Shown: positions 21,713 through 36,248, counted from the first letter of the stretch. The stretch: 64,000 nt of DNA from Oceanisphaera marina (GCF_014643915.1 NZ_BMKE01000002.1:132132-196131), one strand, 5' to 3'. Notes: generated by a model not told the origin, from the letters alone. Program-made: numbers and translations.

Positions 21713-22065
21713 TGGCCCATCACAAGCACGGCAAAGCCAGCCCATCGCCCCAGACTCAAGAAGAGGCTGAACGCGTGGCCAGGGCCACCCAGAAACCGGG
21801 GCAAACCAAAGAACAGACACGACTGATTGCCCAGGGTATTCAAAAGGGCATAGACGAATATAAAAAGCAGCAAAAGGCCCGCGCTCGGGCCGCCGACAAG
21901 GCGAAAAAACAACGCAGCCGCGAACAGGCCCCCCCCCGGACTGACGAGCAGGAAGAGTGGGCGCCAGCACCCCAAGCGATTGGCACATCCTGGTTACCCT
22001 GGGCGTTGCTGGTATCAAGCTGGATTGGTTTTGCCGTTTACTGGTGGCAACAACAACCCGGATAA
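21712..22065 (+). CDS. DUF2956-like small protein with C-terminal TM anchor
   Basis: 117 aa, Lys/Gln-rich (…KPGQTKEQTRLIAQGIQKGIDEYKKQQ…) with one C-terminal TM helix. Its start overlaps the torD-like stop. Confidence 0.6.
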   Translation: MAHHKHGKASPSPQTQEEAERVARATQKPGQTKEQTRLIAQGIQKGIDEYKKQQKARARAADKAKKQRSREQAPPRTDEQEEWAPAPQAIGTSWLPWALLVSSWIGFAVYWWQQQPG

Positions 22066-22074
22066 CCCACAGGA

Positions 22075-23049
22075 GTGCACATGGCCCTTAGCTTACCCGA
22101 ACACTGCCTTACTGCCGAAGGGGTTGAACGACGTCTTGGCGTTGAGCTTGAGCTAAACGGCCTGCCCCTGCCTCGGTTGGCCGGGCTGGTGGCCGAACAA
22201 CTCGGCGGCACTCTGCAACCGCAGTCGGAATACGAAATAGACATAGAAACACCTCTGGGTACCTTTCGCGCCGAGCTGGACTTCGATTATCTGAAACGGC
22301 TGGCGCGAGAACAGCTCAAGCAACCGCCCGGAGAACTCGAATTGGCTGCCACCGAGCTGTTGGGCACCCTGGCCTTTCAACTGGTACCACTCGAACTGAT
22401 CAGCCCGCCACTGCCCTTATCGCAGCTGGTCTGCCTAACACCCTTGTTTGAACGTCTGAGGCTGGCCGGCGCCAAAGGGACCCGCCATGCCCTGCACTAC
22501 GCTTTTGGTTTGCACCTTAATCCCGAGCTGCCAGATACCGATAGTCATACCCTGCTGCGCTACTTCAAGGCTTATTTATGCCTGCACGACTGGCTGGAAG
22601 AGCACGAAGACATAGTGGCTGCGCGCAAGGTGTCGCCCTATATTCGCGCCTTTGGCAAAGAGTACAGCCGCCGGGTTATCGACGTGCATTACTGGCCTGC
22701 CTTGCCCGCCTTTAGTGCCGATTATCTATTGGCCAATCCCAGCCGTAACCGGTCACTCGACTTGCTGCCCTTGTTGGCCTGGCACGATGAGGCGCAAGTA
22801 CAAAGAGCGGTACAGGACGACAAGGTCAACAAACGCCCCACCCTGCACTATCGTCTGCCCAACTCGGATATCGATAACCCCAACTGGTCCCTGGATCATG
22901 CCTGGCGGGGCTGGCTGCAGGTAGAGTCCCTGGCCAACGATGAACACCGGCTGGCCCAGGTATGCCAGCACTACGCCGCGCATCTTGACCAGCTCACGCC
23001 GGACTTCTTAAACCCGTGGAAATACAAGGTCATCCAATGGCTCCGCTAA
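22075..23049 (+). CDS. Putative amidoligase (Amidoligase_2 / glutamine-synthetase-like fold)
   Basis: 324 aa. The similarity is to the uncharacterised amidoligase enzyme family, which is typically paired with C26 gamma-glutamyl hydrolases. Confidence 0.6.
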   Translation: MHMALSLPEHCLTAEGVERRLGVELELNGLPLPRLAGLVAEQLGGTLQPQSEYEIDIETPLGTFRAELDFDYLKRLAREQLKQPPGELELAATELLGTLAFQLVPLELISPPLPLSQLVCLTPLFERLRLAGAKGTRHALHYAFGLHLNPELPDTDSHTLLRYFKAYLCLHDWLEEHEDIVAARKVSPYIRAFGKEYSRRVIDVHYWPALPAFSADYLLANPSRNRSLDLLPLLAWHDEAQVQRAVQDDKVNKRPTLHYRLPNSDIDNPNWSLDHAWRGWLQVESLANDEHRLAQVCQHYAAHLDQLTPDFLNPWKYKVIQWLR

Positions 23050-23726
23050 TTGGCGTCACCGGACCCGACAGCAGACTGCCCTGGGCCTGGTGGGCAACCC
23101 GTCTGGCCATTCGCCTGGCGGGTGGGCGGGCGCTGCGCTTGACCCCCAACAGCTTTCGACCCCACAAGAGAGACAAGCTGCAGGGGCTGATTATTGGCGG
23201 CGGCGACGACATAGATGCCGCCTTATACGGCGAAGACACCGGCCGCGCCCCGGCCGATCCCAGGCGGGATGCCTTTGAAATAGAGCTGATTGAGCACGCT
23301 CTGCAAACCCAACTGCCGTTATTGGGTATTTGCCGCGGTGCCCAGCTGATCAACGTGGTACTCGGGGGATCCTTGCATGCCGATATTCGCCCCCAACGCC
23401 AACACACTTCCAACCGTCGCACCCTGCTACCACGCAAAACCGCCCTGGGCACAGGCGAGGGGCGGTTACATCATATTATGGGCCAGTCACGCTGGCGTAT
23501 TAACAGCCTGCATCATCAGGCGGTCAAACGACTGGGCGCTCAGCTTGAGGTGACTGCACGCGATCTGGACGGCTTTGTACAGGCCATCGAATATCGGGGC
23601 GATCACGCCATTCTGGGAGTACAGTGGCATCCGGAATACCTGCCTTATCTGGCTGGTCAGCGGGAAATTTTTCGCCATTTAGTGGCGCTGGCCAAAGCCA
23701 CCTCTCCCGAGCGACTCTATCCCTGA
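23037..23726 (+). CDS. Class-I glutamine amidotransferase-like / peptidase C26 gamma-glutamyl hydrolase (PuuD-like)
   Basis: The catalytic Cys is in GICRGAQLIN, with the His in the LGVQWHPE context, matching PuuD (GICRGLQ…GVQWHPE). Start chosen at MAPLIGVTG, overlapping the amidoligase by 13 nt. Confidence 0.8.
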   Translation: MAPLIGVTGPDSRLPWAWWATRLAIRLAGGRALRLTPNSFRPHKRDKLQGLIIGGGDDIDAALYGEDTGRAPADPRRDAFEIELIEHALQTQLPLLGICRGAQLINVVLGGSLHADIRPQRQHTSNRRTLLPRKTALGTGEGRLHHIMGQSRWRINSLHHQAVKRLGAQLEVTARDLDGFVQAIEYRGDHAILGVQWHPEYLPYLAGQREIFRHLVALAKATSPERLYP

Positions 23727-24157
23727 TGCTGGATTACCTCATTGTTTTTACCAGCAGCCTGCTGGCGGCCACCATAGCGCCCTTTTACTCGGAAGTGGTG
23801 CTGGCTGCCGTGCTCACCCGCCAGCCCGACGCCGCCCTGTTGTTGTGGTTGCTGGCAAGCATCGGCAATACCCTGGGCGCCATCGTCAACTGGTGGCTCG
23901 GCAAATACCTGCTGCATTATCGCCACAAGCGCTGGTTCCCCATCAAGGAAAAACAATTAGTCAAAGCCCAGGCCGGCTTTCAGCGCTTTGGCGTCTGGAG
24001 CTTGTTGTTGTCCTGGGCGCCCATCGGCGGCGATGCCCTGACCTTTATTGCCGGCATCATGAAGGTACAGCTGCTGCCTTTTACGCTGTTGGTGTTTATT
24101 GGTAAGGCAGCCCGCTACGCCGTGGTGATCTGGCTTGCGGATACGCTGCTGTTGTAA
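23726..24157 (+). CDS. yqaA: YqaA-family (DedA-related) inner-membrane protein
   Basis: Aligns with E. coli YqaA along its length (…NSEVVL…LLSW.P..GD…GKA.RY…). Start at MLDYLIV. Confidence 0.75.
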   Translation: MLDYLIVFTSSLLAATIAPFYSEVVLAAVLTRQPDAALLLWLLASIGNTLGAIVNWWLGKYLLHYRHKRWFPIKEKQLVKAQAGFQRFGVWSLLLSWAPIGGDALTFIAGIMKVQLLPFTLLVFIGKAARYAVVIWLADTLLL

Positions 24158-24193
24158 AAAGGGCCCTGTCGTTGCCGACAAGGCCCTTGGGGA
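24155..24193 (-). terminator. Terminator downstream of telA (a hairpin shared with convergent yqaA)
   Basis: agggccctgtcg-ttgc-cgacaaggccctt stem with TTTTT on the minus strand. Confidence 0.55.
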
Positions 24194-25276
24194 TTAAAAG
24201 GTCTGGCGTAAAGCCTGCTTGAGTTCCTCTTCGGCGCGAGCAATTTCCAGCTCGGCCGCGGCCCGTTGCCGACGCCCGTCACGATAATGCTCCAGGGTGC
24301 TGTTGAGGGTATCTATGGTGATGCGGTTCACTTCTTTCAGGGAGTCCAGATCCAGAATGCCGCGCTGGTAATTACCGGCAATCTCCTGCTCCAGCTGCTG
24401 CAGCTTCTGGGCATTACGTACATATTGCTGATTGGTATAGTCTTTGACGGCTCGCGTCACCTGCAAGGCCTTTTCTTTTTCATAGTTGGAAATTGCAATC
24501 AAGAATTGCCGTTTCCATAACGGAATGGTGTTGTGACAGATATCCTGAATATCTTCCATCAACATCTTGTTGCCTTCTTGGGACAGCCGGATTTGCGGTG
24601 CGGTTTGCAGTGCCGCCAGGCGCACCGCACTCAGATTGGCCAGACGTTTTTCCAGGCGCCCCAGCGCCTGTTGCAAATCACGCAATGCCTGTGCATCTAC
24701 CGGATCGCCGCTTGCCTCGGCCTTGCTCTGCAAGGTGGGCACCTGCTGTTCAAGCAAGGTGTTCAGCTTAAGCTTGCCGGCGGCAATATACACATCCAGT
24801 TGCTGCAGTAGATGCAAATTTTCCTGATACAAGCCATCGAGGCGCTCAATATCCGTGGTCAGTTGGTGCTCATGGGCACGCAACTGCCCCTCCAGGGCAT
24901 CGAGACGATCCTTTACCGAATCAAACCCCTTGATAAAGCTGCCAAAGGTCTGAAACAGTTCGCCAATAAGCGGCAGGCGACTGAGAAAGCTGTCGGGGCG
25001 AATCCGGTCCAACTCACAGCCTTTCATCTGGCCTATCATGGCATCCAGAATGTCTCCGGCTTCGCCCGTATCTCGACTGCGAATATTATCCAGCACCCGA
25101 TCTGAAAAGGCGGTAATGCGCTCCATCGCCTCCTTGCCAAAGGTGATGGTCGCCACTGAATCGAGCGGATCAAGACTGGCGGCAATGCTCTGAACTGCCT
25201 GTTGTTCGTCTGTGTGCAGATCCCCTGGCCGCGTTTCGGCGAGAGCCTGTGTTTGCAAAACGGGTTCATTGGGCAT
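24194..25276 (-). CDS. telA: Toxic anion resistance protein, TelA/KlaA family
   Basis: 360 aa with full-length TelA-family similarity. Start set at the second ATG (MPNEP…), which has AAGGAG six nt upstream. It overlaps the PLD gene stop. Confidence 0.8.
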   Translation of the reverse strand: MPNEPVLQTQALAETRPGDLHTDEQQAVQSIAASLDPLDSVATITFGKEAMERITAFSDRVLDNIRSRDTGEAGDILDAMIGQMKGCELDRIRPDSFLSRLPLIGELFQTFGSFIKGFDSVKDRLDALEGQLRAHEHQLTTDIERLDGLYQENLHLLQQLDVYIAAGKLKLNTLLEQQVPTLQSKAEASGDPVDAQALRDLQQALGRLEKRLANLSAVRLAALQTAPQIRLSQEGNKMLMEDIQDICHNTIPLWKRQFLIAISNYEKEKALQVTRAVKDYTNQQYVRNAQKLQQLEQEIAGNYQRGILDLDSLKEVNRITIDTLNSTLEHYRDGRRQRAAAELEIARAEEELKQALRQTF

Positions 25277-25976
25277 GAAATACTCCTTCATGGTGTAGTT
25301 GCCACAAGCGGTTAAACTCCCCCACGTAGGCTGACACCAGCGGCTCGTTGTCGGTCAGCAACAGGTTTTCCTGGTTGTACTGGCTGGCGCTGCGCGTCCA
25401 GTTAAAGCTGCCATTGAGCAGCCAGCGTCGGTCGAACAGCGCGAACTTGTGGTGCATGTGATAGGGGCTGGTATCGAGCAAGACCTCGACGCCCTTGCGA
25501 CTAAGATAATCCACGTCACTGCCCCTGTCGTTGGCCTTGTCCTGATCGCTCAGCACCCGCACCGCCACCCCCTTGTTGTGGGCCGCCAGCACCGCCTGGG
25601 TAAGGCGATCGTCGGACAAGGTAAATACGCAAATATCCAGTTGCGTTCGGGTCTGCTCAATCAAGCCGATAATGGCCTCTAGACAATCGCGCCCCGGTGA
25701 AAACCAGGCCCCGGATGTGACTGGCTGTACCTGCAGGCGGGCACGATCCAGCGTCTGGATTACCCGCTCCAGCCAGATAACCACCTCGGTGTTTAACTGG
25801 CCGTCTCTGGAGCGTTCGCGCGCCAATTCAAAGGCTTTGTTACGGGCAAAGGACAATAACTCCGGCTGAGAGACCAGACCATCAAACAGCAGCCCCAGAT
25901 CTCGCCGCTCTTCCTTGGAAAGACGGCCATCGGCCAGGGTCAGTCGCAGCTGCATTTCCAGCTCTTGTTGTGTCAT
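25266..25976 (-). CDS. Phospholipase D-family (HKD) protein with an N-terminal TerB-like domain
   Basis: HKD motif HMHHKFALFD…GSFNWT. The N-terminus LTLADGRLSKEERRDLGLLFDGL resembles the TerB ADG motif. Its ATG overlaps the stop of the giant gene (ATGA). Confidence 0.75.
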   Translation of the reverse strand: MTQQELEMQLRLTLADGRLSKEERRDLGLLFDGLVSQPELLSFARNKAFELARERSRDGQLNTEVVIWLERVIQTLDRARLQVQPVTSGAWFSPGRDCLEAIIGLIEQTRTQLDICVFTLSDDRLTQAVLAAHNKGVAVRVLSDQDKANDRGSDVDYLSRKGVEVLLDTSPYHMHHKFALFDRRWLLNGSFNWTRSASQYNQENLLLTDNEPLVSAYVGEFNRLWQLHHEGVFHAQ

Positions 25977-28900
25977 TCGATAGACTCCTTATCCGCCGCG
26001 CCGACGAGGGCGGCTTTATCATCAGTGCCCTGCATCATGGACCAGGCCAGGGTGCGCAGGTGGCTGCCAATGCCCTTCATTTCATCGGCGATCACACCCA
26101 CCTTGTCGACCGGCTGATGCTGTTGGCGATAACGGGCGCAAATGGCGGCCCAGCGGTCGGCCTGCTCGGGTGTCAGAGTCCCGCGCAGCTCGGCCAGCTT
26201 GAGCAGGTTTTCTTCGGTGCCCTGGGTCAGTGTTTGCGCCTCGCCCAGATAGTGATCGTCAAGCAGGCGTTGCAGCTCTTGCTCTGTCATGACCGCCATC
26301 ACTTTTTCCGCCAGCTTGTTCATGTTGCGATAAGAGCCCTGCAACTTGAACGGCGGCTCGGTGCGGTAATCGTCGGCCGAGGCGGCGGACGCGATATATT
26401 GCTGGTTAACCTTGAGCACCACCTGCTGCACTTGCAACAACCGGCTGAGAACGCCGGTGATCTCGCGAGCTTCATGGGCGGAATAGTTGTATTCCAGCTC
26501 ACTGAGTGCAATGTCTTCGCCGCGCGCCATGGCCACCAGCAAGTAAAGGTCCTTGAGATTGCGACTGGCCAGCGGCGCCAGCACCGGGTTGGACGAGAGG
26601 GCATTTTCCACATAAGACAACTCAAAGGCCGCTCGCTGATCAGACAGCATGTCACCCAGGTTATAAATATCGGCGCGGTTGGCCAACATGTCGGGCAGGC
26701 GAAACACTTCTCCCGACTCGGTATAGGGATTGCCCGCCATCACCAGCGCAAAGCGCTTGCCTTTCATGTCATAGGTTTTGGGTTGGCCGCGCCAGACGCC
26801 ATCGATGCGCCGCGTGCCATCACTCAGGGAGATAAATTTCTGCAAAAACTCGGGGTGCGTATGCTGAATATCATCCAGATACAAGAGCACGTTAGCGCCC
26901 ATTTCCAGCCCCAGATTAAGCTTTTCTATCTCGCGGGCAGCGGTGGCATTAGGCGCATCCGCCGGATCCAGCGACACCACCTCGTGTCCCAGCGACGGGC
27001 AGTTGATTTTCATAAACACCATGCCCAGCTTGCCGGCTATGTATTCCACCAGTGTGGTTTTGCCGTAACCGGGAGGCGATATCAACATCAACAGACCCAT
27101 TTGATCGGTTCGACGAGCCGTTCCCATGGCCCCCAGTTGCTTGGCAAAGTTGTCTCCGATCAAGCCCAGATAAGACTCACTGATCAGTTTGTTGCGTACG
27201 AAGCCACTGAGCGGACGCGCCTGAAACTGATCGGGGCGCAACTCGTCTCTGGCTTGCTCGAGCAAAGTCGAGCGCCTCGCCTGAAAGGCATCAAAGGCCG
27301 GTAATACCTGTTGTTGGTGATATTCACCCCGCGTTAAAAAGTCATCCAGGCTGAGTATCAGCTCTCCCCCATCCAACCTCGGATGGTCGGCCAGTAATCC
27401 TTGCACGCGTACCGCCAACGAGAAATCGAGCGGGCGCAACACCAGCTCGCTGTGCTCTTTAAGGCAGGCCAGCGCCGCCGCTTCAACCACGAAGCTGTCG
27501 GGTCTTTGCTGCTGTTCACAAAATGCCTGCAGCCACAGTTGATGCTCGGCACAGCTCTCGACACTGATTGAACTATCACCCTGCCAACCTAAGCTGCGGC
27601 GAAAGGACAGATAATCCGAGGCCAGTTCATCCGCATCCCGGCTGATCAGGATATCGCCATCGATGGCGAGTTGGCGCAACAGATAGTCGGCGGTTTGCCG
27701 GGTATCTATCGCCTCGGCAACGAGCCCGAGTTCCTGTATCGACAACGCCAACTGCTGCTGTAATTGCTCATACAAAGATGACTGCCCAAGATGTTGTTGT
27801 AATTGCAGGGCGTCTTGACCACGGCGACGCCAGTGCTCGCGCTGGATCTTAGGCTGGGCAGATAACCACAAGAGCCCGGTCGCGCGGGCGCGCTGGCCAA
27901 AGCGTAATAATCCCGCCTCTCTATACAAGGGCCAGAGCGCCGTAAGCAGGCACACTGCGTCTTGATCGTGAATGCCCTTTACATAACCATCGCGATAACG
28001 GCTGGCAGCAAAACGCTGTACTAATCCGGTCAATGTGCCTTCTTTGAGCGCCGCTTCCAGCACCTCGGGCGAGAGGTCTTCTTGTCGGCGCTCCACTTGC
28101 TGCAACAGGCAGTAAGCCAGATATTCAGAGCGGCTAAGCTGCGGGCTTTCCGAGGGTAGCGTCAGCTCACCAAACCGGCTCAGGGTTTCCAGCTCGGCAT
28201 CCACCACCGGCTCGTAAAAGTCGGTGCCGGTAAGATGCAGCGCCAGTTGCTGCTGCCTTTGCACCAGGGTCAGGGCCGGCTCTTGAGTGTTGACCGCAAA
28301 CCGATGTCGACCCAGCTTGAGCACGCTGCCCCCCTGCTCAAAGATATCCTGATTATCTCGCAGGGTACTCATTGCCTGTTCTTTCAGGGTCTTTACGCGC
28401 CCGCGTACCGCTTCGGCACGCACGCTGCCGCCCAGTTGCTCCATTTGAGTGGCAAGCTGCGCCAGCTTGTGCACCATGGCATCGGCGGCAAAATAACCGT
28501 TAAGCTCCGCCAACTGGTCGAAACGTCGCACTCGCTTGTCGATGCTGGCCAGCGTAATCTCTGCCGCCTGCGCCAGGTTGTCGAGCCGCTTTTGTCGCGC
28601 CGCAAGCAACTGTTGTTTGCGCGATTCCAGACTGGACTGTATCTCGTCACGTTTGTGATAGATGTCAGCCAGAAACTGATCGAATTCGGCAAAACGGCTT
28701 TCCAGTTTTTCAATCATGCCCATCAGTCGCGCCTGCTGTTCGTCGCAGCTTTCTGGACTGTCGGCCTGCCCCAGTGCCGACGTGACCGCCTGGGTCAACA
28801 ACTTGAGCTGAGCCTCAAACTCGGCCTCTGCCTCGCCTTGACGCAGTTGCTGATGACGCTGGCGCAATCGAGCCAGACAGGCATTGAGCCGCGCCACCAC

Positions 28901-30898
28901 TTCAGTAGTCAGATCGAGAATACGGGTCGCCTGGGTCGCATCCTGAGTTTCAATTTCGGCCACTTCTTCGTTGATCAGATCCAAAGACTGATGGATTTCA
29001 TCCGCCTGCTCACGCAGTCGATCCAGCTCGACTGTGGTAGTACATTCGGGCAGAGCCCGTTCCAGCTCATCAATGACCTTGAGAAAAGGCTGATACGCCT
29101 GCTCTTTCTGTAACAACCCCAGCAGTCGCTGATTAAGCTGCTCACGGCCGTGTTCGAGCTGTTGCTCCAGCTCCAACAGACGTGCTTCATCCACATAACG
29201 GCCACCCTTGAGACTGATCACCCGCCCCAGCTGGGTTTTGATTCCGGCCAATAATTGAATAAGCTGCGCGGCATCGTCATCCGGGCTCAGTTTGATGCGG
29301 CCCAGCAACGTCTGCTGCTCCTGCGCCAACTCGGCAATGGCGCTATCGGTTTGCTGGCGCAACAGCTGTACCTTGGCAAACTCATCGACGATTTGTTCGG
29401 CGGTGGTGGTGATTTCACGCACCTGAGCACCCAACTTGCCTGCTGCATCGTCATCGAGCCAATGATAGTTATCGAGCGTGCGTCCACAAAAGGTCACCAG
29501 AATTTCATACAGCGAACGGGTCACCTCCTGGGTACGACAATAGGAGACGATACTGTTGATTTCGGCGATACCACGCACCAGTTCGGCATTGCCGATATTG
29601 GCGAAAAAAGGATGTTGATGCTGGTGTTGGTCAGCCTCGTAAATTTCGAGGGTCATGAACGGCGTTTGCCAGATGCGCAGCGGGTGCAGTTTGCTGGCCA
29701 CACTGTTATCAGTGAGGCGAAACATCAACATGCGGCCATCGTTATAAAGGCTGTAGCCGTGATTGTAGTTAGGTGGACTGACGCTTTTCTCGATCAGGTT
29801 GTAGCTATAGTGCAGGTAGGCGCCTTGAACGGGATCAAAAAAGATAAACAGCACATCTTCGCCATTGGGAGCCTGTTCCCGATGGAAATAGCGCATCTGC
29901 CGCCAGTCTTCGTCAAATAGCCGAGCGTCTCCATCGGCCAGCAGATAGCCGTTGGCAAATAACAGGCCGTGATCTTCTGGTAGTAACTTGCAGCTCGCCC
30001 CGATGGCATCGGCGCGCACGACTTTTTCGGTCAGTCGGTTGTACGCCAGATAACGGTAGTCTTTCTCACGGTTAGGCCGCACCTTGAGCAGAATAAACCC
30101 CGCCGCCTCGGCATAATGGACTTCGGTATCGGCCAGCGTCTGGTGGACGTCTTCCACCGGCTCGTTGAATATTTCCAGACCGTCGGGGGTGTTGTTTTCA
30201 ATACGAACACTGAGGCTGCCTGCCAGACAGTCGACAAACAGCTGATCGAGGATCATCAGGTGTGGTCTGTCTCCCTGCACCTGATGATCTCGCCCTGCCA
30301 ACTGCCATTGCACATCCTGCTGGGGCGCTTCATCCAGCTGGGCTTGACCCGGATCGTCCAGATATTCGACGCGACCGTCTGCGTGCAGCTGCCAGCGATA
30401 GACCTTGCGATCTTCCAGCCGCGAGCCAATTTGAAACACCAGATACAACCAGCTGCCGCGCCGGCTGATTTGGGTCAAACGCGTATCTTTGTAGTAGGTG
30501 AGCAGTTCATTAAAGGAGTGGCGAAAACGGGCATCGTCGAGAAAAGTATCCGCCAGTGGCAGCTCTTCTACTCGAAACTGACCGTCATGTTCGACCAGTC
30601 GATATAATCCCAGTACTTCTTCCACGGACGGGACGGCTTTAAGCCCCACTTGTACACGATAGCCAAACAGCAAGAGGCCGTTGATCTGCGCTATGTCTAT
30701 GGGCAGGCAACGATGTTCGGTATGTACATTGACCCTGCCCAGCAGCTCCTGGGCTCGGGCACCAAAGGCCTGTTGGCGAGCCTGATTAAAACTGCCGGCA
30801 TCTTCGGCCAGCGCCTTGCCTTGCTCGGCCAGGCGGGCGCGCAGTATCTCGTAGGATCCTTCGCCGGCCACCGCCTCATTAAGTTGATGTTGTTCCAT
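25973..30898 (-). CDS. Giant (1641 aa) uncharacterised protein with extensive coiled-coil regions and one P-loop AAA+ ATPase module near residue 1320
   Basis: A single uninterrupted ORF. Walker A is LISPPGYGKTTL, Walker B is VLLYLDDIQH, and sensor-1 is ALVMAGNP. Residues about 480-900 are Gln/Leu/Glu/Arg-rich coiled coil. The N-terminal 450 aa show no similarity I recognise. Confidence 0.75.
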   Translation of the reverse strand: MEQHQLNEAVAGEGSYEILRARLAEQGKALAEDAGSFNQARQQAFGARAQELLGRVNVHTEHRCLPIDIAQINGLLLFGYRVQVGLKAVPSVEEVLGLYRLVEHDGQFRVEELPLADTFLDDARFRHSFNELLTYYKDTRLTQISRRGSWLYLVFQIGSRLEDRKVYRWQLHADGRVEYLDDPGQAQLDEAPQQDVQWQLAGRDHQVQGDRPHLMILDQLFVDCLAGSLSVRIENNTPDGLEIFNEPVEDVHQTLADTEVHYAEAAGFILLKVRPNREKDYRYLAYNRLTEKVVRADAIGASCKLLPEDHGLLFANGYLLADGDARLFDEDWRQMRYFHREQAPNGEDVLFIFFDPVQGAYLHYSYNLIEKSVSPPNYNHGYSLYNDGRMLMFRLTDNSVASKLHPLRIWQTPFMTLEIYEADQHQHQHPFFANIGNAELVRGIAEINSIVSYCRTQEVTRSLYEILVTFCGRTLDNYHWLDDDAAGKLGAQVREITTTAEQIVDEFAKVQLLRQQTDSAIAELAQEQQTLLGRIKLSPDDDAAQLIQLLAGIKTQLGRVISLKGGRYVDEARLLELEQQLEHGREQLNQRLLGLLQKEQAYQPFLKVIDELERALPECTTTVELDRLREQADEIHQSLDLINEEVAEIETQDATQATRILDLTTEVVARLNACLARLRQRHQQLRQGEAEAEFEAQLKLLTQAVTSALGQADSPESCDEQQARLMGMIEKLESRFAEFDQFLADIYHKRDEIQSSLESRKQQLLAARQKRLDNLAQAAEITLASIDKRVRRFDQLAELNGYFAADAMVHKLAQLATQMEQLGGSVRAEAVRGRVKTLKEQAMSTLRDNQDIFEQGGSVLKLGRHRFAVNTQEPALTLVQRQQQLALHLTGTDFYEPVVDAELETLSRFGELTLPSESPQLSRSEYLAYCLLQQVERRQEDLSPEVLEAALKEGTLTGLVQRFAASRYRDGYVKGIHDQDAVCLLTALWPLYREAGLLRFGQRARATGLLWLSAQPKIQREHWRRRGQDALQLQQHLGQSSLYEQLQQQLALSIQELGLVAEAIDTRQTADYLLRQLAIDGDILISRDADELASDYLSFRRSLGWQGDSSISVESCAEHQLWLQAFCEQQQRPDSFVVEAAALACLKEHSELVLRPLDFSLAVRVQGLLADHPRLDGGELILSLDDFLTRGEYHQQQVLPAFDAFQARRSTLLEQARDELRPDQFQARPLSGFVRNKLISESYLGLIGDNFAKQLGAMGTARRTDQMGLLMLISPPGYGKTTLVEYIAGKLGMVFMKINCPSLGHEVVSLDPADAPNATAAREIEKLNLGLEMGANVLLYLDDIQHTHPEFLQKFISLSDGTRRIDGVWRGQPKTYDMKGKRFALVMAGNPYTESGEVFRLPDMLANRADIYNLGDMLSDQRAAFELSYVENALSSNPVLAPLASRNLKDLYLLVAMARGEDIALSELEYNYSAHEAREITGVLSRLLQVQQVVLKVNQQYIASAASADDYRTEPPFKLQGSYRNMNKLAEKVMAVMTEQELQRLLDDHYLGEAQTLTQGTEENLLKLAELRGTLTPEQADRWAAICARYRQQHQPVDKVGVIADEMKGIGSHLRTLAWSMMQGTDDKAALVGAADKESIE

Positions 30899-30959
30899 GA
30901 TTAGATGATTCCAGGCTGGTAAGCGAACGGGGGCCGCATAACGGCCCCCTCCTTGCGGT

Positions 30960-33041
30960 TTACTCCTGTTTGGCGTCGCCTGTTACCAGCTGCTGCAGTT
31001 TATCCTGCAGGTTGCCGTTGCCATTGAGTTTGGTCAGCAGGTTGGCCAGCGCCAAATTGCTCACCGTGCCTGTGTCTATCTTGGAATTTTCCAGTACCGC
31101 GCGAATATCGTCGGACAGGCTGCGGCCTTGTTCAGTGTATTCACGCACCAGTGGCTTGAGCACTTCGCTGCTGCCAATGCGGCTGTCGAGTTTGGCGCTG
31201 CTCATCACGGTGCGACGCAGCTCTTCCATACCCTGACCGCCAAACAGCTTGATGTCCGCGTTGGACAGTGCCGTTGCCAGTGCCTTGGCACTGTCGACCG
31301 ACATCGACTTTTGGGCGTCGATACGGGCAATTTCCAGCTCTTTCTGCTGCTGCAGTTCCAGCACCCATTTGTCGTGCTCACGGGTTTGATCGTCAAATTT
31401 CTTCGCCGCTTCAAAACGTGCCGTCTGGGTTTCGGCTTCGGCCAGCCCTTTGGCGCGCAGCGCCTGGGCCTCGGCATCACCTTTGGCTCTGTGGCTTTCG
31501 GCTTCAGCCAGACCAAGCGAAGAAATAGCAGCGGCTTCGGCGTCGCCGGTTTCACGAATCGCCATGGCACGCTCGCGATCCACACCGACCTGCGCCAGCC
31601 CTTCGGCACTGATTTCTTCACGCAGGGCATGGGCCATGCGCTCTTTGGCTTCGGCACGTTTGGTTTCCTGAATCAGTTCGGCCTCGGCTTCGCGGGTCTT
31701 CACATTCAGATCGTTTTCCGCTTCGCGGGTACGGATCTTGATTTGAGCTTCGCTTTCCAGGGTTTGCTTTTCCATCCATTCCTGAGCAGCCTGCTTCTCG
31801 GTGCGGGCCATGACCACGGAGCGAATGCCCTCGGCTTCGGCTGCCGCCTCGGCCTCTACCAGGCGCACTTTTTTCTCGCGCTCGACAAGCTGGAAGGCGC
31901 GCAAATTGGCGGTTTCTTCTTCTTCACGTGCTATCTTGCGCTCGATTTCAACTCGCTGAGATTGCGTTTCCACCACCGCCTTGCGGGCTTCTTCCAGCGC
32001 AGCCTCTTTCTCCATGGTCTGCTGGGCAATTTCCCGCTCGGTACGTACCCGTTCGGTTTCCTTGGCGCGATTGACTTCTTCCTGCTGAATAGCCACCTGA
32101 CGCTCGTTGCTGCTGCGGGTTAAATCCACTTCCATCTGCAACGATTCCTGGCGCTTGGCCACGTTTTCTTCGGTCTGCAGACGCGCCAGTTCTTTTTGAC
32201 TGACATATTCCTGACGCTTCTCTTCGGTCAGGGCTTCTTCTTGAGCACGAATGATCTCGATTTCGCGCTTTACGCGAGCCAGGTTTTCCTGCTCCTGCTT
32301 ATCAAGCTGAGCGCGGTTGCTTTCGGCCTCTACGTTCTTTTGCTTGATTAAGGTTTGCTCGTCCTGACGAATGGCGTTGGTTTCAATATTTTTACTGGAG
32401 GTAATAGAAGCAATCTTGCGAATACCTTCCACATCCAATACGTTTTGCGGATCGTGGGCGTCAAAACAGGTCTGATCTACGCGGTCAATAACCACATCGT
32501 AGATCTTGAACCCATCCATCTCGGAGCCAATCACTTCCACCACAGCATCCCGAAATTCACGGCGGTTGGTGAGCAGCTCTTCAAATTCAAACTGCTTAAC
32601 GGCGGTTTTCAGGGCCTCTGAGAATTTGGGCTGAAAATGTTCTTTCAGCCGATCCAGCTGAGACGCACCAATGGTGGTGAACAGCTTGGCCACGCGAATA
32701 ATATCTTCTTCTTCGTGGTTAACACCGATATAGAAGTCTACTTTCAGGTCGGCACGAATATTATCCCGGCAATGCAAACCTTCCGATTCCTCACCCAACT
32801 GGTCTTTACGACCACTGCGGATCACCGAAATTTTCTTGCGCGTGATATCCATAAACTCACCGCGATTAACGACAGGCCACACAAAGGCACCGGTAAGCGT
32901 AGCGCGCGTCCGTCTGCTGCCGTTAACAATAAGTGCTTCACCTTCATGGCGTATTTTGTAATAGCGGCTGGTCAGAAAAACAAGTATCAAGACTATCAGG
33001 CCGGCAAGCCCACCGACAAAATAGTACAAAGGGGTAAACAT
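30960..33041 (-). CDS. Flotillin / SPFH (band-7) family protein, YqiK-like but extended (693 aa)
   Basis: N-terminal TM helix, then an SPFH domain, then a Glu/Ala/Arg/Lys-rich coiled coil of about 320 residues with repetitive EAE/AEA heptads. Confidence 0.8.
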   Translation of the reverse strand: MFTPLYYFVGGLAGLIVLILVFLTSRYYKIRHEGEALIVNGSRRTRATLTGAFVWPVVNRGEFMDITRKKISVIRSGRKDQLGEESEGLHCRDNIRADLKVDFYIGVNHEEEDIIRVAKLFTTIGASQLDRLKEHFQPKFSEALKTAVKQFEFEELLTNRREFRDAVVEVIGSEMDGFKIYDVVIDRVDQTCFDAHDPQNVLDVEGIRKIASITSSKNIETNAIRQDEQTLIKQKNVEAESNRAQLDKQEQENLARVKREIEIIRAQEEALTEEKRQEYVSQKELARLQTEENVAKRQESLQMEVDLTRSSNERQVAIQQEEVNRAKETERVRTEREIAQQTMEKEAALEEARKAVVETQSQRVEIERKIAREEEETANLRAFQLVEREKKVRLVEAEAAAEAEGIRSVVMARTEKQAAQEWMEKQTLESEAQIKIRTREAENDLNVKTREAEAELIQETKRAEAKERMAHALREEISAEGLAQVGVDRERAMAIRETGDAEAAAISSLGLAEAESHRAKGDAEAQALRAKGLAEAETQTARFEAAKKFDDQTREHDKWVLELQQQKELEIARIDAQKSMSVDSAKALATALSNADIKLFGGQGMEELRRTVMSSAKLDSRIGSSEVLKPLVREYTEQGRSLSDDIRAVLENSKIDTGTVSNLALANLLTKLNGNGNLQDKLQQLVTGDAKQE

Positions 33042-33096
33042 TATCGTGCTCCTAGTTATAGTGATTTTTTTTGGGGGGATATCAAATAACAGACAA

Positions 33097-33690
33097 TTAT
33101 TGCTTGGTGATGAAATATCGCCGAGTCACATCATTGAAAGAAAGAATGCGAACTTCATCTCCATAATGCAGCTCTTCTTTATCATCACAATAAACATCAA
33201 GCTGATTTTCCACACTGCCACGAGTCACCACCACTTCACCGAAGTGTGCGCCCACTCGAGAAGTACGAACTCGAGCACGCATACCAATGTAATTGATGCT
33301 GGCGTAAACGCGGCTCTGATCAAACAAGGGAGCCAAAGGCTTCAGTATCCATGCAGCAAGGTAGAGACTGAGGTAACATGCCAGCGGTATGGCCAGAGTG
33401 GCGAGCGTATAAAACAGCCAGGCAGGAACCAAAGGCGTCACCAAATGAGAAAACATAAATAGTTCGGCCGTGGCTAAAAAAAACACCAAGGGTAAACTGA
33501 CCACGATGGGAATTTGAGTGATGCCTATGGGTAACAGCATATCGGGCAAGTCTGCGTCCACGTTCAGGCTGGGTAACAGCTCGTCAAACAAGCCGGTAAA
33601 TACCGAAAAGAGTAGCAGCAGTAAAAATAGCAAAAAGGGAATCGCTGTCATCACAACAGGAAAGGCAAAAAACGTTTGCCATACGTCCAT
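33097..33690 (-). CDS. YqiJ/NfeD-like inner-membrane protein (DUF1449) with a C-terminal OB-fold
   Basis: 197 aa with four TM helices and a soluble C-terminus (…GEVVVTRGSVENQLDVYCDDKEELHYGDEVRILSF…). It lies 55 nt upstream of the flotillin gene, as in yqiJK/nfeD-floT pairs. Confidence 0.7.
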   Translation of the reverse strand: MDVWQTFFAFPVVMTAIPFLLFLLLLLFSVFTGLFDELLPSLNVDADLPDMLLPIGITQIPIVVSLPLVFFLATAELFMFSHLVTPLVPAWLFYTLATLAIPLACYLSLYLAAWILKPLAPLFDQSRVYASINYIGMRARVRTSRVGAHFGEVVVTRGSVENQLDVYCDDKEELHYGDEVRILSFNDVTRRYFITKQ

Positions 33691-33816
33691 GATAAGGTCT
33701 CGTTTGTATGTTTACCCGATACTAAATGCGTATTCCAAAGTGAGCATCATATGCAGCATTTATTTTTGTGCTGCGCACAATCGAAAAGGAAACTAACAAA
33801 GCCATCTGCAATCGTC

Positions 33817-33841
33817 AACGTTAATATTTTATATTAACGTT
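33817..33841. promoter_or_regulatory. Perfect 11-bp inverted repeat AACGTTAATAT-ttt-ATATTAACGTT, about 125 bp upstream of the yqiJ-like gene; candidate operator
   Basis: Direct reading. It lies in the AT-rich divergent region between the yqiJ-like gene and acs. Confidence 0.5.
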
Positions 33842-34298
33842 ATTCACCCAACGACTTTCCAACCTTTTATAAGACCCAGTAAAATTCATCCTGTCGTAAT
33901 TTAAATAGTCGTTACCCCTCTAAATTCAGGGTGATTTAGTCGTACATACTGCTCTTGCTCAGCCATCGTCTTTAAAATAAAATCTTGCTAATAAATATCC
34001 AGCAACAGGCGCAGACCTTAACCTTTACTCATGCTCGTCACTAACATCAGAAAGCCGACGGCTTTGTTCATACTTCAAGCGGCATTTGCTATCGCTTTAC
34101 AACACGCATGCTACATGCGTGAATTTTGAACAAGCCGTACACTATCTGCATACAAACCAACAACAAAGCCTGCAAACTATGCTAGTAATGAGACATGGCT
34201 AGCCAAAAGTCTAATTGAGCGTGACGGCCTTCTGCGTCACCTTGTTACACAATAGTTACACCCCAGGGGTTATTGGTACTACACCAAGGAGCGGAATA

Positions 34299-36248
34299 AT
34301 GAGTGAAGTTAAGGTTCATCCTGTCATGGCACATATTGCCGAACATGCCCTGATAGACGATGCAGGCTATAAAAGCATGTATCAGGAGTCTATCGAGAAC
34401 CCAGAGAAATTCTGGGGCGAACAAGGTAAGCGTTTAGACTGGATAAAGCCCTATACCAAGGTAAAGAATACCTCTTACGATCCGGGCCATATCAACATCA
34501 AGTGGTTTGAAGACGGTACCCTTAACCTGTCCGCCAACTGCATCGACAGGCATCTGGCGACCAAGGCCGATGAGGTGGCTATTATCTGGGAAGGTGACAG
34601 CCCCGACGACGACAAAAAAGTCACCTACCGCGAGCTGCACGAGCAGGTGTGCCGCTTTGCCAACGTATTGAAAGCACACGGCGTGAAAAAAGGCGACGTG
34701 GTCAGTTTATATATGCCCATGGTAGTGGAAGCCGCCGTGGCCATGCTGGCCTGTGCGCGCATTGGCGCCGTACATTCGGTGGTGTTTGGTGGCTTTTCTC
34801 CCGACGCCGTAGCCAGCCGTATCATCGACTCCAATGCCAAACTGGTGATCACCGCCGACGAAGGCCTGCGCGGCGGTCGTACCGTGCCGCTGAAAGCCAA
34901 CGTGGATGCGGCACTGGCCAAGCCGGGGGTGAGTGCAGACTGTAAAGTCATTGTTTACCGTCGCACCGGTGGCGATGTTGCCTGGGACGAGTCTCGCAAT
35001 ATCTGGTGGCATGAAGCCGCCGCCAAGGTAGACGCCGTTTGCGAGCCCGAAGAAATGAACGCCGAAGATCCGCTGTTCATACTCTATACCTCGGGCTCTA
35101 CCGGTACCCCAAAAGGCGTATTGCACACCACCGGGGGGTATCTGGTGTATGCCGCCATGACCTTCAAGTACATCTTCGACTATCACGACGGCGACGTGCA
35201 CTGGTGTACCGCAGACGTCGGCTGGGTGACCGGCCACACCTATATTCTGTATGGCCCGCTGGCCAATGGCGCCACCACCCTGATGTTCGAGGGGGTGCCC
35301 AATTACCCGAAAACCAATCGCATGAGCCAGATTGTCGACAAGCACCAGGTCAATATTCTGTATACCGCTCCTACCGCCATTCGCGCCTTCATGGCCAAGG
35401 GCGATGAAGCAGTAGAAGGCACCAGCCGTGCCAGCCTGCGCATTCTGGGCTCTGTGGGTGAGCCCATCAACCCAGAAGCCTGGGAATGGTATTACCGGGT
35501 GATTGGCGACGAACGCTGCCCGATAGTGGATACCTGGTGGCAAACCGAAACCGGCGGTATCCTGATTTCTCCGCTGCCCGGCGCCACCCTGCTCAAGGCC
35601 GGCTCGGCTACCCGCCCCTTCTTTGGCGTACAGCCCGCCCTGGTGGACGGGGAAGGCAATATTCTGGACGGCGCCACCGATGGTAACCTGGTTATTCTGG
35701 ACTCCTGGCCGGGACAGATGCGTACCATCTACGGCGACCACGACCGCTTTGAACAAACCTACTTTTCGACCTTCCCCGGCACCTACTTCTGTGGTGATGG
35801 CGCTAAGCGCGACGAAGACGGTTACTACTGGATTACCGGTAGGGTAGACGATGTGCTGAACGTGTCTGGCCACCGCATGGGCACCGCCGAAATTGAGTCG
35901 GCATTGGTGGCGCATCCCAAAATTGCCGAAGCGGCCATTGTGGGCGTGCCTCACGACATCAAGGGCCAGGGTATTTACGCCTACATCACCTTGAATGCCG
36001 GCGAAGTACCCAGTGCCGAGCTGCATAAAGAGGTAAAAGACTGGGTGCGTAAAGAAATTGGCCCTATTGCCACGCCCGATGTCATCCACTGGGCCGAAGG
36101 CCTGCCCAAGACTCGATCAGGTAAAATCATGCGCCGTATTCTGCGCAAGATTGCCACCGGCGAAACCGATACCCTGGGCGATACCTCGACCCTGGCTGAT
36201 CCGGCCGTGGTTGACCGTCTGATAGAAGAGCGGGTTCGTCTGGGTTGA
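34299..36248 (+). CDS. acs: Acetyl-CoA synthetase
   Basis: 650 aa from [19 protein letters not shown]…, near-identical to Acs. The start is trimmed from ORF position 34215. Confidence 0.95.

Follow-up and report, generated by a model that had tools for sequence, protein, structure and literature searches.

Flotillins, NfeD proteins and TelA proteins are widespread in bacteria. The closest described system to the locus reported here is an operon of a YqiJ-type protein, a flotillin and an AAA+ ATPase, sometimes with an additional HKD hydrolase and usually headed by a CesT-PspA pair, which Ravi et al. 2024 (mSystems, PMC11237479) predicted from comparative genomics only, without assigning a mechanism. 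The same study noted abbreviated operons without PspA, and its main text does not mention TelA. Neither Hinderhofer 2009 nor the P. aeruginosa SPFH paper refers to giant ATPase, phospholipase D (PLD) or TelA partners. In the literature searched, no experimental function of the gene set is on record, no papers were returned for “DUF3686” or “PF12458”, and the papers on “DNA repair ATPase” are unrelated.

We analysed a window of 64,000 nucleotides from Oceanisphaera marina (GCF_014643915.1, NZ_BMKE01000002.1:132132-196131), which contains one operon of this kind. ORF calling locates five consecutive genes on the minus strand, at 33097-33690, 30960-33041, 25973-30898, 25266-25976 and 24194-25291, which encode in this order a YqiJ-like protein, a long flotillin, a giant ATPase, a PLD-superfamily hydrolase and TelA. 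An earlier note on this DNA had presented the same cluster at 24194-33690 as a candidate undescribed system. This does not hold: four of the five genes already form a described operon (Ravi et al. 2024). TelA is not included in it, and the described arrangement has no assigned function and is not from a model organism. The intergenic gaps of 55 nt and 61 nt given in that note are present, as is the ATGA overlap of the giant and PLD genes, through which the PLD is translationally coupled to the ATPase. The overlap between the PLD and telA genes is not 10 nt, as had been claimed, but 11 nt from the second ATG of telA or 26 nt from the first; the second ATG, preceded by GAAGGAG, is where the identical public protein P0121 begins. 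Within the 61-nt gap between the flotillin and giant genes, the junction sequence contains a GC-rich hairpin, GGGGGCCG-TTATG-CGGCCCCC (30929-30949, minus strand), that may act in attenuation or in stabilising the mRNA. According to TM prediction, the membrane-spanning parts of the operon are the flotillin, with one N-terminal segment, and the YqiJ-like protein, with about three; the giant, the PLD and TelA have none. The membrane association suggested for the parts thus holds.

The first gene of the operon (33097-33690, minus strand) encodes a short NfeD membrane protein of the YqiJ/YuaF type with 197 residues, in which the TM segments (TM-like windows 3-42, 51-84 and 83-117) are followed by a C-terminal soluble β domain. 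Pfam returns no match for this protein, and its Hymenobacter orthologue is annotated as DUF1449. Its label rests on the family profile (A3), which aligns with E. coli YqiJ at an hhalign probability of 94% (E=1e-7); the match to the soluble domain of B. subtilis YuaF (2k14) is weak (E=0.044). The flotillin (693 residues; 30960-33041, minus strand) consists of an N-terminal TM segment (residues 1-30), an SPFH domain, a coiled coil of about 345 residues (216-560, 61% E+A+Q+R+K) and a C-terminal region. Its profile matches are weak (NCBIfam FloT 7.6e-6, Pfam Flot 0.024), and the assignment comes from aligning it directly with E. coli YqiK (BLASTP 2e-20, residues 4-420, spanning the TM segment and SPFH domain). 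Both features by which Ravi et al. 2024 define this part of the operon are found in the window, namely a flotillin that combines a TM segment, a band-7 (SPFH) domain, a coiled coil and a flotillin region, and a YqiJ/YuaF-type 3TM protein beside it.

We compared the locus with 83 related loci that have at least 5 kb of upstream and at least 2.5 kb of downstream flank. The flotillin gene adjoins the giant ATPase gene in 83/83 of them and a YqiJ-like gene is present in 82/83, so that the adjacency is not fortuitous. The loci cover Proteobacteria, Actinomycetota, Bacteroidota and Deinococcota, and the core occurs in Vibrionaceae, Oceanospirillales, Proteus, Halomonas and the Pseudomonas plasmid pQBR103 as well as in Streptomyces, Nonomuraea, Deinococcus and Hymenobacter. 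The invariant core is a YqiJ/YuaF-type NfeD protein, a long anchored flotillin and an AAA+ ATPase of about 1650 residues; to it, different lineages add a CesT/Tir-PspA pair, TelA, a MitoPLD-like single-HKD hydrolase, or rhomboid or M50 proteases. This co-conservation across phyla, together with the tight coupling of the genes, agrees with the proposal that the five genes act as a unit. Taken as a whole, we consider the locus best explained, with a probability of roughly 0.55, as an operon for inner-membrane stress sensing and maintenance, in which the giant ATPase would be docked at the flotillin.

The giant ATPase (1641 residues; 25973-30898, minus strand) is cytoplasmic, matches Pfam DUF3686, DUF7902 and AAA, and carries the NCBI name “DNA repair ATPase”. 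A DUF3686 N-domain is followed by the DUF7902 coiled coil, a β and helical middle domain and one AAA+ module, in line with the single P-loop ATPase in a coiled-coil protein that had been proposed. The DUF3686 domain (residues 30-479; 29462-30811, minus strand; PF12458, E=2.2e-150) is made of β-propeller repeats according to Ravi et al. 2024 (PMC11237479). A search of 1.84 billion representatives gave 603 DUF3686 clusters at 50% identity; among the members listed, most of the longer ones have about 1600-1900 residues and the shorter ones appear fragmentary. More than 2390 homologues of the giant were found, and it is 40-58% identical across phyla. Since some 1650 residues stay at least 40% identical from phylum to phylum, this protein must do something specific. 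A single-sequence search against the PDB gave no match and a profile search gave only weak matches confined to the P-loop.

The AAA+ module (about residues 1229-1629; 26012-27214, minus strand) was examined with an AF2 model of residues 850-1641 (pLDDT 84, pTM 0.70) and Foldseek. Against the PDB this model gives 115 matches at E<=1e-3, and the best 50 of the 115 are all AAA+ proteins, among them Skd3/ClpB (1.4e-5), RuvB (3e-5), NorQ/CbbQ (3.7e-5), ClpA/ClpC and MCM. The module has a Walker A motif (GYGKTT), a Walker B motif (LYLDD), a β-hairpin between Walker B and sensor 1, sensor 1 itself, an arginine finger and the α-β-α fold with a lid (Foldseek probability 1.00). In the family alignment G1277-YGKT-T1281, D1342-D1343 of Walker B, which is DD and not DE, N1390 of sensor 1 and R1408 are invariant. 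The classical AAA clade (Vps4/FtsH/p97) was considered and rejected: the best 50 Foldseek matches lie elsewhere, the β-hairpin before sensor 1 is present, and the sequence matches to p97 and Rix7 are confined to the P-loop. The module instead groups loosely with ClpB/Skd3, RuvB, MoxR and MCM, and no obvious aromatic pore loop is seen in it; like the DD of Walker B, this counts against the remodelling role proposed for the giant below.

Does the fold tell us what the giant acts on? Its database names (“DNA repair ATPase”, “ATPase involved in DNA repair”, “Smc”) imply a DNA repair or chromosome-associated ATPase, and RuvB and MCM are indeed among the many AAA+ fold matches. However, these names are inherited, the weak similarity to RuvB in sequence is limited to a stretch of about 40 residues surrounding the P-loop with its Walker A motif, and the simplest explanation of “Smc” is the long coiled coil. 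Domain profile searches of the giant detected no DNA-binding or nuclease domain, both of its obligate partners are integral membrane proteins, and its accessory genes are those of PspA, TelA and membrane proteases, so that we regard a role in DNA repair as highly improbable. A different reading takes the nearest fold relatives at face value: since the best 50 of the 115 matches place the module closest to the disaggregases and unfoldases Skd3/ClpB and ClpA, the flotillin/YqiJ assembly may be a cage that confines damaged or unfolded membrane proteins and the giant an unfoldase or extractor of the caged clients, with TelA, PspA, rhomboid and M50 proteases as parallel helpers rather than TelA or PspA as objects of remodelling. 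Intramembrane proteases of the rhomboid and M50B types are repeatedly encoded inside flotillin-giant operons or downstream of them, and the abstracts on S. aureus FloA-NfeD (PMC11222466) and on HflK/C-FtsH (PMC13220708) describe such cage and quality-control roles for SPFH proteins. On the other hand, the giant has no protease domain, the canonical aromatic-hydrophobic-Gly pore loop is not seen after Walker A in the AAA+ module, and the match to ClpB is about as good as those to MoxR, RuvB and MCM. Membrane-protein quality control would also leave the exchange of TelA for PspA, described below, without an explanation. We judge it unlikely as the main role.

The fourth gene (25266-25976, minus strand) encodes a phospholipase-D-superfamily hydrolase of 236 residues, as had been suggested (PLDc_2, 1.6e-29). 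It has the PLDc_2 fold and one intact HKD motif, HxK(x)4D(x)6GSxN, within the family-conserved HHKFALFD...NGSFNWTRSA; in the family alignment, conservation is 90% or more at H175, K177, D182, G189, S190 and N192. Because each chain has a single HKD motif, a dimeric active site is expected. Searched against the PDB, the family profile finds mitochondrial cardiolipin hydrolase best (1.1e-40), followed by Nuc (2.4e-18) and NucT (2.9e-13), which by profile comparison places the catalytic domain closest to MitoPLD/Zucchini. At the N-terminus lies a family-specific, conserved helical extension (about 95 residues), for which neither Pfam at E<=10 (residues 1-100) nor the PDB family-profile search finds a relative. 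A TerB-like domain had been claimed for this region and finds no support: Pfam TerB (PF05099) is absent from 16/16 family members even at E<=5, the PDB profile search is negative as well, and hhalign against the genuine TerB of E. coli O157 gives a probability of 0.08%, with only a 10-residue motif aligned (DGRLSKEERR/DGNFDQDEKL), of whose “DG” the PLD family does not conserve the G.

An anionic phospholipid such as cardiolipin is the substrate we favour for the PLD, with nucleic acid as the alternative. Relatives of MitoPLD/Zucchini can be nucleases. A nuclease would suit an anti-phage or abortive-infection system, the other function considered in the earlier note, in which the scaffold senses membrane damage by phage, the ATPase transduces the signal, the HKD nuclease is the effector and TelA contributes. 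Besides the matches to the nucleases Nuc and NucT, the PLD has weak PADLOC/NCBIfam matches to DrmC and DpdK, which are HKD proteins of defence systems (6e-9 to 1e-7), but these are far under the family cut-offs, and the giant, the flotillin, the YqiJ-like protein and TelA match no model in PADLOC-DB 2.0. The PLD, the presumed effector, is also found in only 37/83 loci and missing from 46/83.

TelA, the last gene product, is a cytoplasmic protein of 360 residues when read from the second ATG (24194-25276, minus strand; ORF to 25291). Its name is secured by a match to PF05816 over profile positions 1-331 of 332 (E=1.2e-79, 268 bits against a Pfam cut-off of 30), and it is 100% identical to P0121, “TelA-like protein [Oceanisphaera marina]”. 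The AF2 model (pLDDT 79) is a long three-helix bundle (helices 110-194, 197-309 and 315-364), the protein has a conserved hydrophobic segment, and the best fold matches, all weak, are ClyA-type membrane-inserting proteins. The predicted fold retrieves no PspA, Vipp1 or ESCRT-III, so that membership of TelA in the ESCRT-III/PspA superfamily is not supported. The TelA proteins encoded in such operons stand apart as a tier with 52-86% identity to the window TelA; the next relatives are YaaN-like proteins of Clostridia and Spirochaetes at about 41%. In E. faecium, the xpaC-telA pair has been tied to daptomycin binding and anionic-phospholipid microdomains, and the ΔtelA mutant alone has no phenotype (PMC6811118).

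The distribution of TelA in the census is informative. It is present in 35/83 loci and PspA in 22/83, with neither in 26/83 and never both (Fisher p=4.5e-7 for all 83 loci, which are phylogenetically non-independent). Restricting the comparison to the 51 distant loci leaves 6 with TelA, 22 with PspA and 23 with neither (Fisher p=0.03, again for phylogenetically non-independent loci). TelA and PspA are thus mutually exclusive in this sample; the non-independence of the loci and the number with neither gene weigh against reading more into it. The CesT-PspA pair lies directly upstream in 22/83 loci, for example in Thiodiazotropha (L036) and Hymenobacter (L040), in both of which the DUF3686 family adjoins the CesT-PspA-YqiJ-flotillin genes; in L039 it belongs to the same cluster further downstream. 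In pQBR103 CesT-PspA is located further upstream, with polyamine-type genes between it and the triad. At two loci (L046 and L063) TelA takes the position of PspA, directly before the YqiJ-like gene. The CesT/Tir-PspA dyad that heads the operon of Ravi et al. 2024 does not head the operon here, and a search of the 64-kb window with HMMs for the PspA and CesT proteins from related loci finds neither. Because TelA and PspA never occur together and TelA sometimes occupies the PspA slot, we read the window, from its gene content, as a TelA-bearing variant of the predicted envelope-stress system.

Both ends of the operon were inspected for regulatory elements. Downstream, a hairpin with a 13-bp stem, AAGGGCCCTGTCG/CGACAAGGCCCTT (24159-24188, minus strand), lies between the convergent DedA and telA genes. 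Since TTTTT follows on the minus strand, this hairpin is likely the intrinsic terminator of the operon, in keeping with the convergent terminator noted before. It was found by direct reading and was not called by the consensus terminator scanner; the consensus promoter/terminator scanner returned nothing convincing at either operon boundary. Upstream, the AT-rich region with a palindrome that had been pointed out is present: the GC content over 33000-34500 is about 0.43, compared with 0.55-0.59 within the module, and a perfect 11-nt palindrome, AACGTTAATAT-N3-ATATTAACGTT, is located at 33817-33841. The low GC at this end coincides with the promoter region and the gene of a hydrophobic membrane protein. 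The palindrome overlaps a promoter-like element on the minus strand, TTGACG-N17-TAGTTT (-35 at 33813-33818, -10 at 33790-33795; 33790-33841 including the palindrome), which was likewise read directly from the sequence and is a candidate for the operon promoter. In an alignment with the O. baumannii upstream region the -35/-10-like hexamers are kept and the palindrome is not. A classical psp-type sigma-54 promoter was looked for and not found: no -24/-12 site (TGGCAC-N5-TTGC, <=2 mismatches) occurs in 33691-34214, and matches to this pattern across the whole window are at chance level. This counts against the stress-maintenance reading.

The earlier note had also taken the module for an insertion. 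In Oceanimonas baumannii, however, the module has the same neighbours as in the window, acs at one end and DedA, Peptidase_C26, amidoligase and DUF2956 at the other. Because of this synteny a recent island was rejected. The same chromosomal position in two genera speaks against defence, as does the slow evolution of the giant, whose identity of at least 40% between phyla is unlike typical fast-turnover defence genes. Proponents of defence could point to megaplasmid copies, for example on pQBR103 and on plasmids of Deinococcus, Hymenobacter and Streptomyces, and to a distribution that appears patchy in Aeromonadaceae, the closest non-family relatives being from Oceanospirillales. Ter/TelA proteins are also said to have been linked to phage resistance, by Anantharaman et al. 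2012. But the protein search of phage genomes found no copy of the giant, the 150 flanking proteins are heterogeneous housekeeping products, and in the flanks of 50 loci defence matches are single and scattered, no family linked to defence or mobility recurs, and the top families include neither integrases nor transposases. With PADLOC matches that are weak and limited to the PLD, a defence function is in our view quite unlikely.

How might a membrane stress sensing and maintenance operon work? We infer each mechanistic step. By analogy to solved SPFH assemblies, a scaffold or microdomain attached to the cytoplasmic face of the membrane would be formed by the flotillin together with YqiJ, and the giant ATPase would dock there. 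Powered by ATP, the giant may then drive the assembly, remodelling or release of a helical protein that binds the membrane peripherally, which would be PspA in many lineages and TelA in the operon described here, and the HKD enzyme may modify a local substrate, for example an anionic phospholipid such as cardiolipin.

Could a giant AAA+ protein tethered to the flotillin then have TelA as the partner it works with, and TelA be an evolutionary alternative to PspA? In this more specific proposal the ATPase would load or remove TelA at the stressed inner membrane while the MitoPLD-like enzyme would remodel cardiolipin locally. We offer it tentatively and regard it as doubtful; if it is true, the operon would represent a new bacterial membrane-repair apparatus and would provide a mechanism for TelA. 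The operon ties a flotillin, an NfeD protein and TelA to a large and very conserved ATPase. If TelA and PspA are alternative clients or effectors of one core, the role of TelA in tellurite, nisin and daptomycin tolerance, and that of flotillin microdomains in envelope stress, would become testable by simple genetics in Vibrio, Photobacterium and Proteus. The analysis also corrects the misleading name “DNA repair ATPase”, which thousands of proteins carry in databases.

Comparison with known systems places the operon among several families. The E. coli yqiJK and B. subtilis yuaF-floT pairs likewise have the NfeD gene first and the flotillin gene second, but yqiJK is annotated as a two-gene unit with no adjoining giant ATPase, PLD or TelA, the window flotillin is 140 residues longer than E. 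coli YqiK, and a DNA-level search of 5,426 complete E. coli genomes found no near-identical match to the module. With the “toxic anion resistance” proteins TelA, KlaB, YceH and YaaN it shares the full-length PF05816 match; the partners of the known TelA/KlaB family are klaA/telB or xpaC, whereas here they are a flotillin and an AAA+ ATPase. The PLD resembles MitoPLD/Zucchini, Nuc and NucT in its profile matches and in having a single HKD motif per chain, and differs in its N-terminal extension of about 95 residues and the lack of a TM anchor. The systems of ESCRT-III, PspA or Vipp1 with Vps4-type remodellers resemble the operon in that, as proposed, a gene for a peripheral helical membrane-binding protein lies beside an AAA+ gene, and the PspA form of the flotillin-giant operon encodes a true ESCRT-III-superfamily protein. 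The closest relative is the operon of Ravi et al. 2024, with the same three core families in the same order and, in some Proteobacteria, the same optional HKD hydrolase; the operon of O. marina differs from it in having no CesT-PspA pair and in ending with TelA.

The five consecutive minus-strand ORFs claimed in the earlier note are present in the window at exactly the claimed positions. They encode a YqiJ-like protein (33097-33690, 197 aa), a flotillin (30960-33041, 693 aa), a giant ATPase (25973-30898, 1641 aa), the hydrolase PLD (25266-25976, 236 aa) and TelA (24194-25291, 365 aa). The junction sequences include an AGGAG Shine-Dalgarno in the 55-nt gap 5' of the flotillin gene, an ATGA overlap that joins the giant and PLD genes, and, from the flotillin stop to the giant start, a 61-nt gap that holds a GC-rich hairpin (GGGGGCCG-TTATG-CGGCCCCC, 30929-30949). 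This hairpin could reduce read-through, yielding less ATPase than scaffold, or could stabilise the upstream mRNA. Taking the second ATG as the telA start, as in the public Oceanisphaera marina TelA-like protein (P0121), which is 100% identical to the window TelA, gives an 11-nt overlap with the PLD gene; GAAGGAG precedes this ATG. The space between the convergent telA and DedA genes holds a hairpin with a 13-bp stem (24159-24188), with TTTTT after it on the minus strand.

The divergent region upstream of the operon comprises 520 bp with a GC content of about 0.43. It contains a promoter-like TTGACG-N17-TAGTTT on the minus strand (-35 at 33813-33818, -10 at 33790-33795), and the Oceanimonas baumannii upstream region aligns over TTGACG-N17-TA(G/A)TTT, the hexamers being conserved in both. 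A perfect 11-nt palindrome, AACGTTAATAT-N3-ATATTAACGTT (33817-33841), overlaps the -35 hexamer and is not conserved in O. baumannii in the same alignment. No match to the sigma-54 consensus was found upstream of the operon. A regulatory reading of the promoter-like site and palindrome, made from sequence, is weak.

The flotillin aligns with E. coli YqiK over the TM and SPFH region (E = 2e-20) and has no match to the Pfam Band_7 profile. Pfam likewise gives no match for the YqiJ-like protein, while its family profile (21 orthologues) aligns with E. coli YqiJ at an hhalign probability of 94% (E = 1e-7) and weakly with the soluble domain of B. subtilis YuaF (E = 0.044). According to hydropathy, the flotillin has one TM segment and the YqiJ-like protein about three, the giant, PLD and TelA having no such segment. 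TelA is a full-length PF05816 match (E = 1e-79), and TelA proteins linked to the operon stand apart as a tier of their own, with 52-86% identity to the window TelA and the next relatives at about 41%.

PLD matches PLDc_2 (E = 1.6e-29), and the HxK...D...GSxN motif is conserved in its family. A profile of 16 family members, compared with the PDB, gives mitochondrial cardiolipin hydrolase (MitoPLD/Zucchini) as the best match (1e-40), followed by Nuc (2e-18) and NucT (3e-13); the N-terminal region has no PDB sequence match with this profile. The TerB-like domain previously proposed for this region finds no support: Pfam is empty for residues 1-100 at E ≤ 10, and none of the 16 members matches TerB at E ≤ 5. 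Nor is TerB supported by direct hhalign comparison with the E. coli O157 Sakai protein (probability 0.08%), in which the alignment is limited to DGRLSKEERR versus DGNFDQDEKL and the motif glycine is not conserved in the PLD family.

In the giant, DUF3686 spans residues 30-479 (E = 2e-150), DUF7902 residues 600-683, and a single AAA module lies around residues 1266-1400; the N-domain is a β-propeller according to Ravi et al. (mSystems 2024, PMC11237479). We found no literature on DUF3686 / PF12458. A search with the DUF3686 domain alone returned 603 clusters at 50% identity among 1.84 billion representatives, and the longer members among the matches listed are mostly 1600-1900 aa. More than 2390 homologues of the giant were scored, nearly all of 1600-1800 aa and carrying the NCBI name "DNA repair ATPase"; a function in DNA repair, as this name implies, is in our judgement highly improbable. 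Full-length identity is 40-58% between proteins of Gammaproteobacteria, Actinomycetota, Bacteroidota and Deinococcota, with no variation across these phyla in Walker A (GYGKTT), Walker B (DD), N1390 or R1408. The Walker B is Asp-Asp (D1342-D1343, window 26870-26875) rather than Asp-Glu, invariant in 14 distant and 50 closer homologues, and may confer slow or regulated hydrolysis.

A single-sequence search found no solved structure for the giant, and a profile search gave P-loop-limited matches only (E of at least 0.0065). The AF2 model of residues 850-1641 (pLDDT 84, pTM 0.70) consists of a small β domain, a helical domain of about 250 residues, a long helix and the AAA+ module, which has a β-hairpin between Walker B and sensor 1. 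Searched against the PDB with Foldseek, this model gave 115 matches at E ≤ 1e-3; the best 50 of these are all AAA+, led by Skd3/ClpB, RuvB, NorQ/CbbQ (MoxR), ClpA and MCM. As modelled, the giant belongs to the pre-sensor-1-hairpin AAA+ group, not to the classical Vps4/FtsH/p97 clade, and no one clade is favoured. A version of the system in which the giant would act in quality control, as an unfoldase, is doubtful.

A genome scan identified 35 loci, in Oceanimonas (84% identity), Neptuniibacter, Amphritea, Marinobacterium, Photobacterium, Enterovibrio, Grimontia, Veronia, Thaumasiovibrio and Vibrio, and almost all of them are arranged as YqiJ-like, flotillin, giant, (PLD), TelA. By tblastn against plasmid records, the YqiJ-like, flotillin and giant genes (the triad) were found together in Proteus mirabilis, Halomonas, pQBR103 (P. 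fluorescens), Deinococcus, Hymenobacter, Streptomyces and Nonomuraea, and a metagenome scan with the family alignment added 80 loci. For a census, HMMs for eight neighbour families were run against all stop-to-stop frames, and counts were made over the 83 loci whose flanks reach at least 5 kb upstream and 2.5 kb downstream. Flotillin accompanies the giant in 83/83 loci and the YqiJ-like gene in 82/83, and therefore the adjacency is not fortuitous; the co-conservation check asked for in the earlier note thus refutes chance adjacency. PLD occurs in 37/83, TelA in 35/83, PspA in 22/83 and CesT in 21/83, with a protein of about 110 aa (9/83) and a rhomboid protease (5/83) being rarer. The triad forms an invariant core to which PLD and TelA are added as accessories.

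PLD is retained without a downstream TelA in L008, L016, L027 and L045 (three Photobacterium genomes and a metagenome contig), and the reverse, TelA kept without PLD, holds for seven close relatives; gain and loss of the two accessories are therefore independent. Some ORFs are split: TelA into two in O. baumannii (L025, 15554-16672), the giant into several in Vibrio aestivus (L035, 7397-12268), and both flotillin and giant in Veronia nyctiphanis (L029, 7834-14853). Judged from sequence, these may be signs of decay, as pseudogenes, or assembly errors.

Could the operon be an inserted defence module, a reading that the earlier note allowed? Its presence on some megaplasmids and a seemingly patchy distribution within Aeromonadaceae would suit such a role. 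In O. baumannii, however, the module lies between the same chromosomal neighbours as in the window (acs on one side; DedA, Peptidase_C26, amidoligase and DUF2956 on the other), and therefore it is not a strain-level insertion. PADLOC matches PLD only, and weakly (DrmC and DpdK, 6e-9 to 1e-7), with no match for the giant, flotillin, YqiJ-like protein or TelA. For the 150 flanking proteins of 50 loci, PADLOC matches are scattered singletons with no recurrent family, the commonest Pfam families are housekeeping (CoA transferase, YaeQ, LysE, response regulators, RecA), and the top 25 families include no integrase or transposase. We found no phage-borne copy. Together with the slow evolution of the giant, these results argue against a typical mobile defence system; insertion is not favoured, and phage defence is unlikely.

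Two features of the surroundings are recorded here. Zn_ribbon_TFIIB-domain proteins, 5 of the 150 flanking proteins (set A7), are the most frequent family among these heterogeneous neighbours and may have been added to the operon in particular lineages. On the opposite strand, the operon is directly followed (21712-24157) by genes for DUF2956, Amidoligase_2, Peptidase_C26/GATase and a DedA/VTT membrane protein, a cluster syntenic in O. baumannii, in which the amidoligase and GATase pair looks like its own small peptide- or amine-ligation system.

SPFH proteins form large membrane-attached rings or cages with NfeD partners. Flotillin and the YqiJ-like protein would form an SPFH-type scaffold of this kind at the cytoplasmic face of the membrane, on which the soluble giant could plausibly dock, given its large N-terminal interaction domain and coiled-coil spacer. 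The giant would tie its ATP turnover to how a peripheral helical membrane protein is assembled; this protein would be PspA in many lineages and TelA in the window. PLD may alter anionic lipid locally, since its gene is coupled in translation to that of the giant and its closest match is a cardiolipin hydrolase; with Zucchini, Nuc and NucT being nucleases, nucleic acid is also a possible substrate. The membrane-associated stress reading of the earlier note is reasonable, and we give a probability of roughly 0.55 to an inner-membrane stress or maintenance system in which TelA would play the part of PspA. In E. faecium, the xpaC-telA pair is reported to be linked to daptomycin binding and anionic-phospholipid microdomain distribution (PMC6811118), which is compatible with TelA acting on lipid domains. 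The flotillin-ATPase-TelA system lends itself well to genetics in Vibrionaceae or Proteus.

In the 83-locus census TelA (35 loci) and PspA (22 loci) share no locus, and 26 loci have neither. Fisher's test gives p = 4.5e-7 over all loci and p = 0.03 over the 51 distant ones (6 TelA, 22 PspA, 23 neither), both values being descriptive, with shared ancestry ignored. TelA is usually last in the operon; in L046 and L063 it lies directly upstream of the YqiJ-like gene, the slot held by PspA in other loci. PLD is found with TelA in 24 loci, with PspA in 8 and with neither in 5, which makes it an accessory to the core rather than to TelA. The 64-kb window contains no PspA or CesT gene.

In the PspA-type loci and several loci too short upstream to classify (L036, L039, L047, L054, L059, L064, L066, L078, L103, L118), further membrane-related genes recur, among them a rhomboid protease, usually just 3' of the giant, and an M50B peptidase; the protein of about 110 aa recurs in such loci between PspA and the YqiJ-like gene.

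The module was previously called undescribed, which is wrong for four of its five genes: Ravi et al. (PMC11237479) already treat them as a unit, predicted computationally and read in general terms as "membrane dynamics/chaperone", in a conserved operon of a CesT/Tir-PspA dyad plus three more genes. TelA, "toxic anion", YaaN and KlaA are absent from the main text of that paper, and we found no literature linking TelA with flotillin, NfeD or the giant, Anantharaman, Iyer & Aravind 2012 (Ter/TelA neighbourhoods) being outside the search. The new part may be the TelA-bearing form of the operon and the apparent alternation of TelA with PspA. The Thiodiazotropha (L036) and Hymenobacter (L040) loci match the arrangement of Ravi et al. 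with the same protein families as the window. On pQBR103 (L039), where the triad is fused to a polyamine-type PspA cluster (DUF2491, DUF350, DUF1190, glutathionylspermidine synthase), the families are the same, but a polyamine-type gene block separates PspA from the triad.
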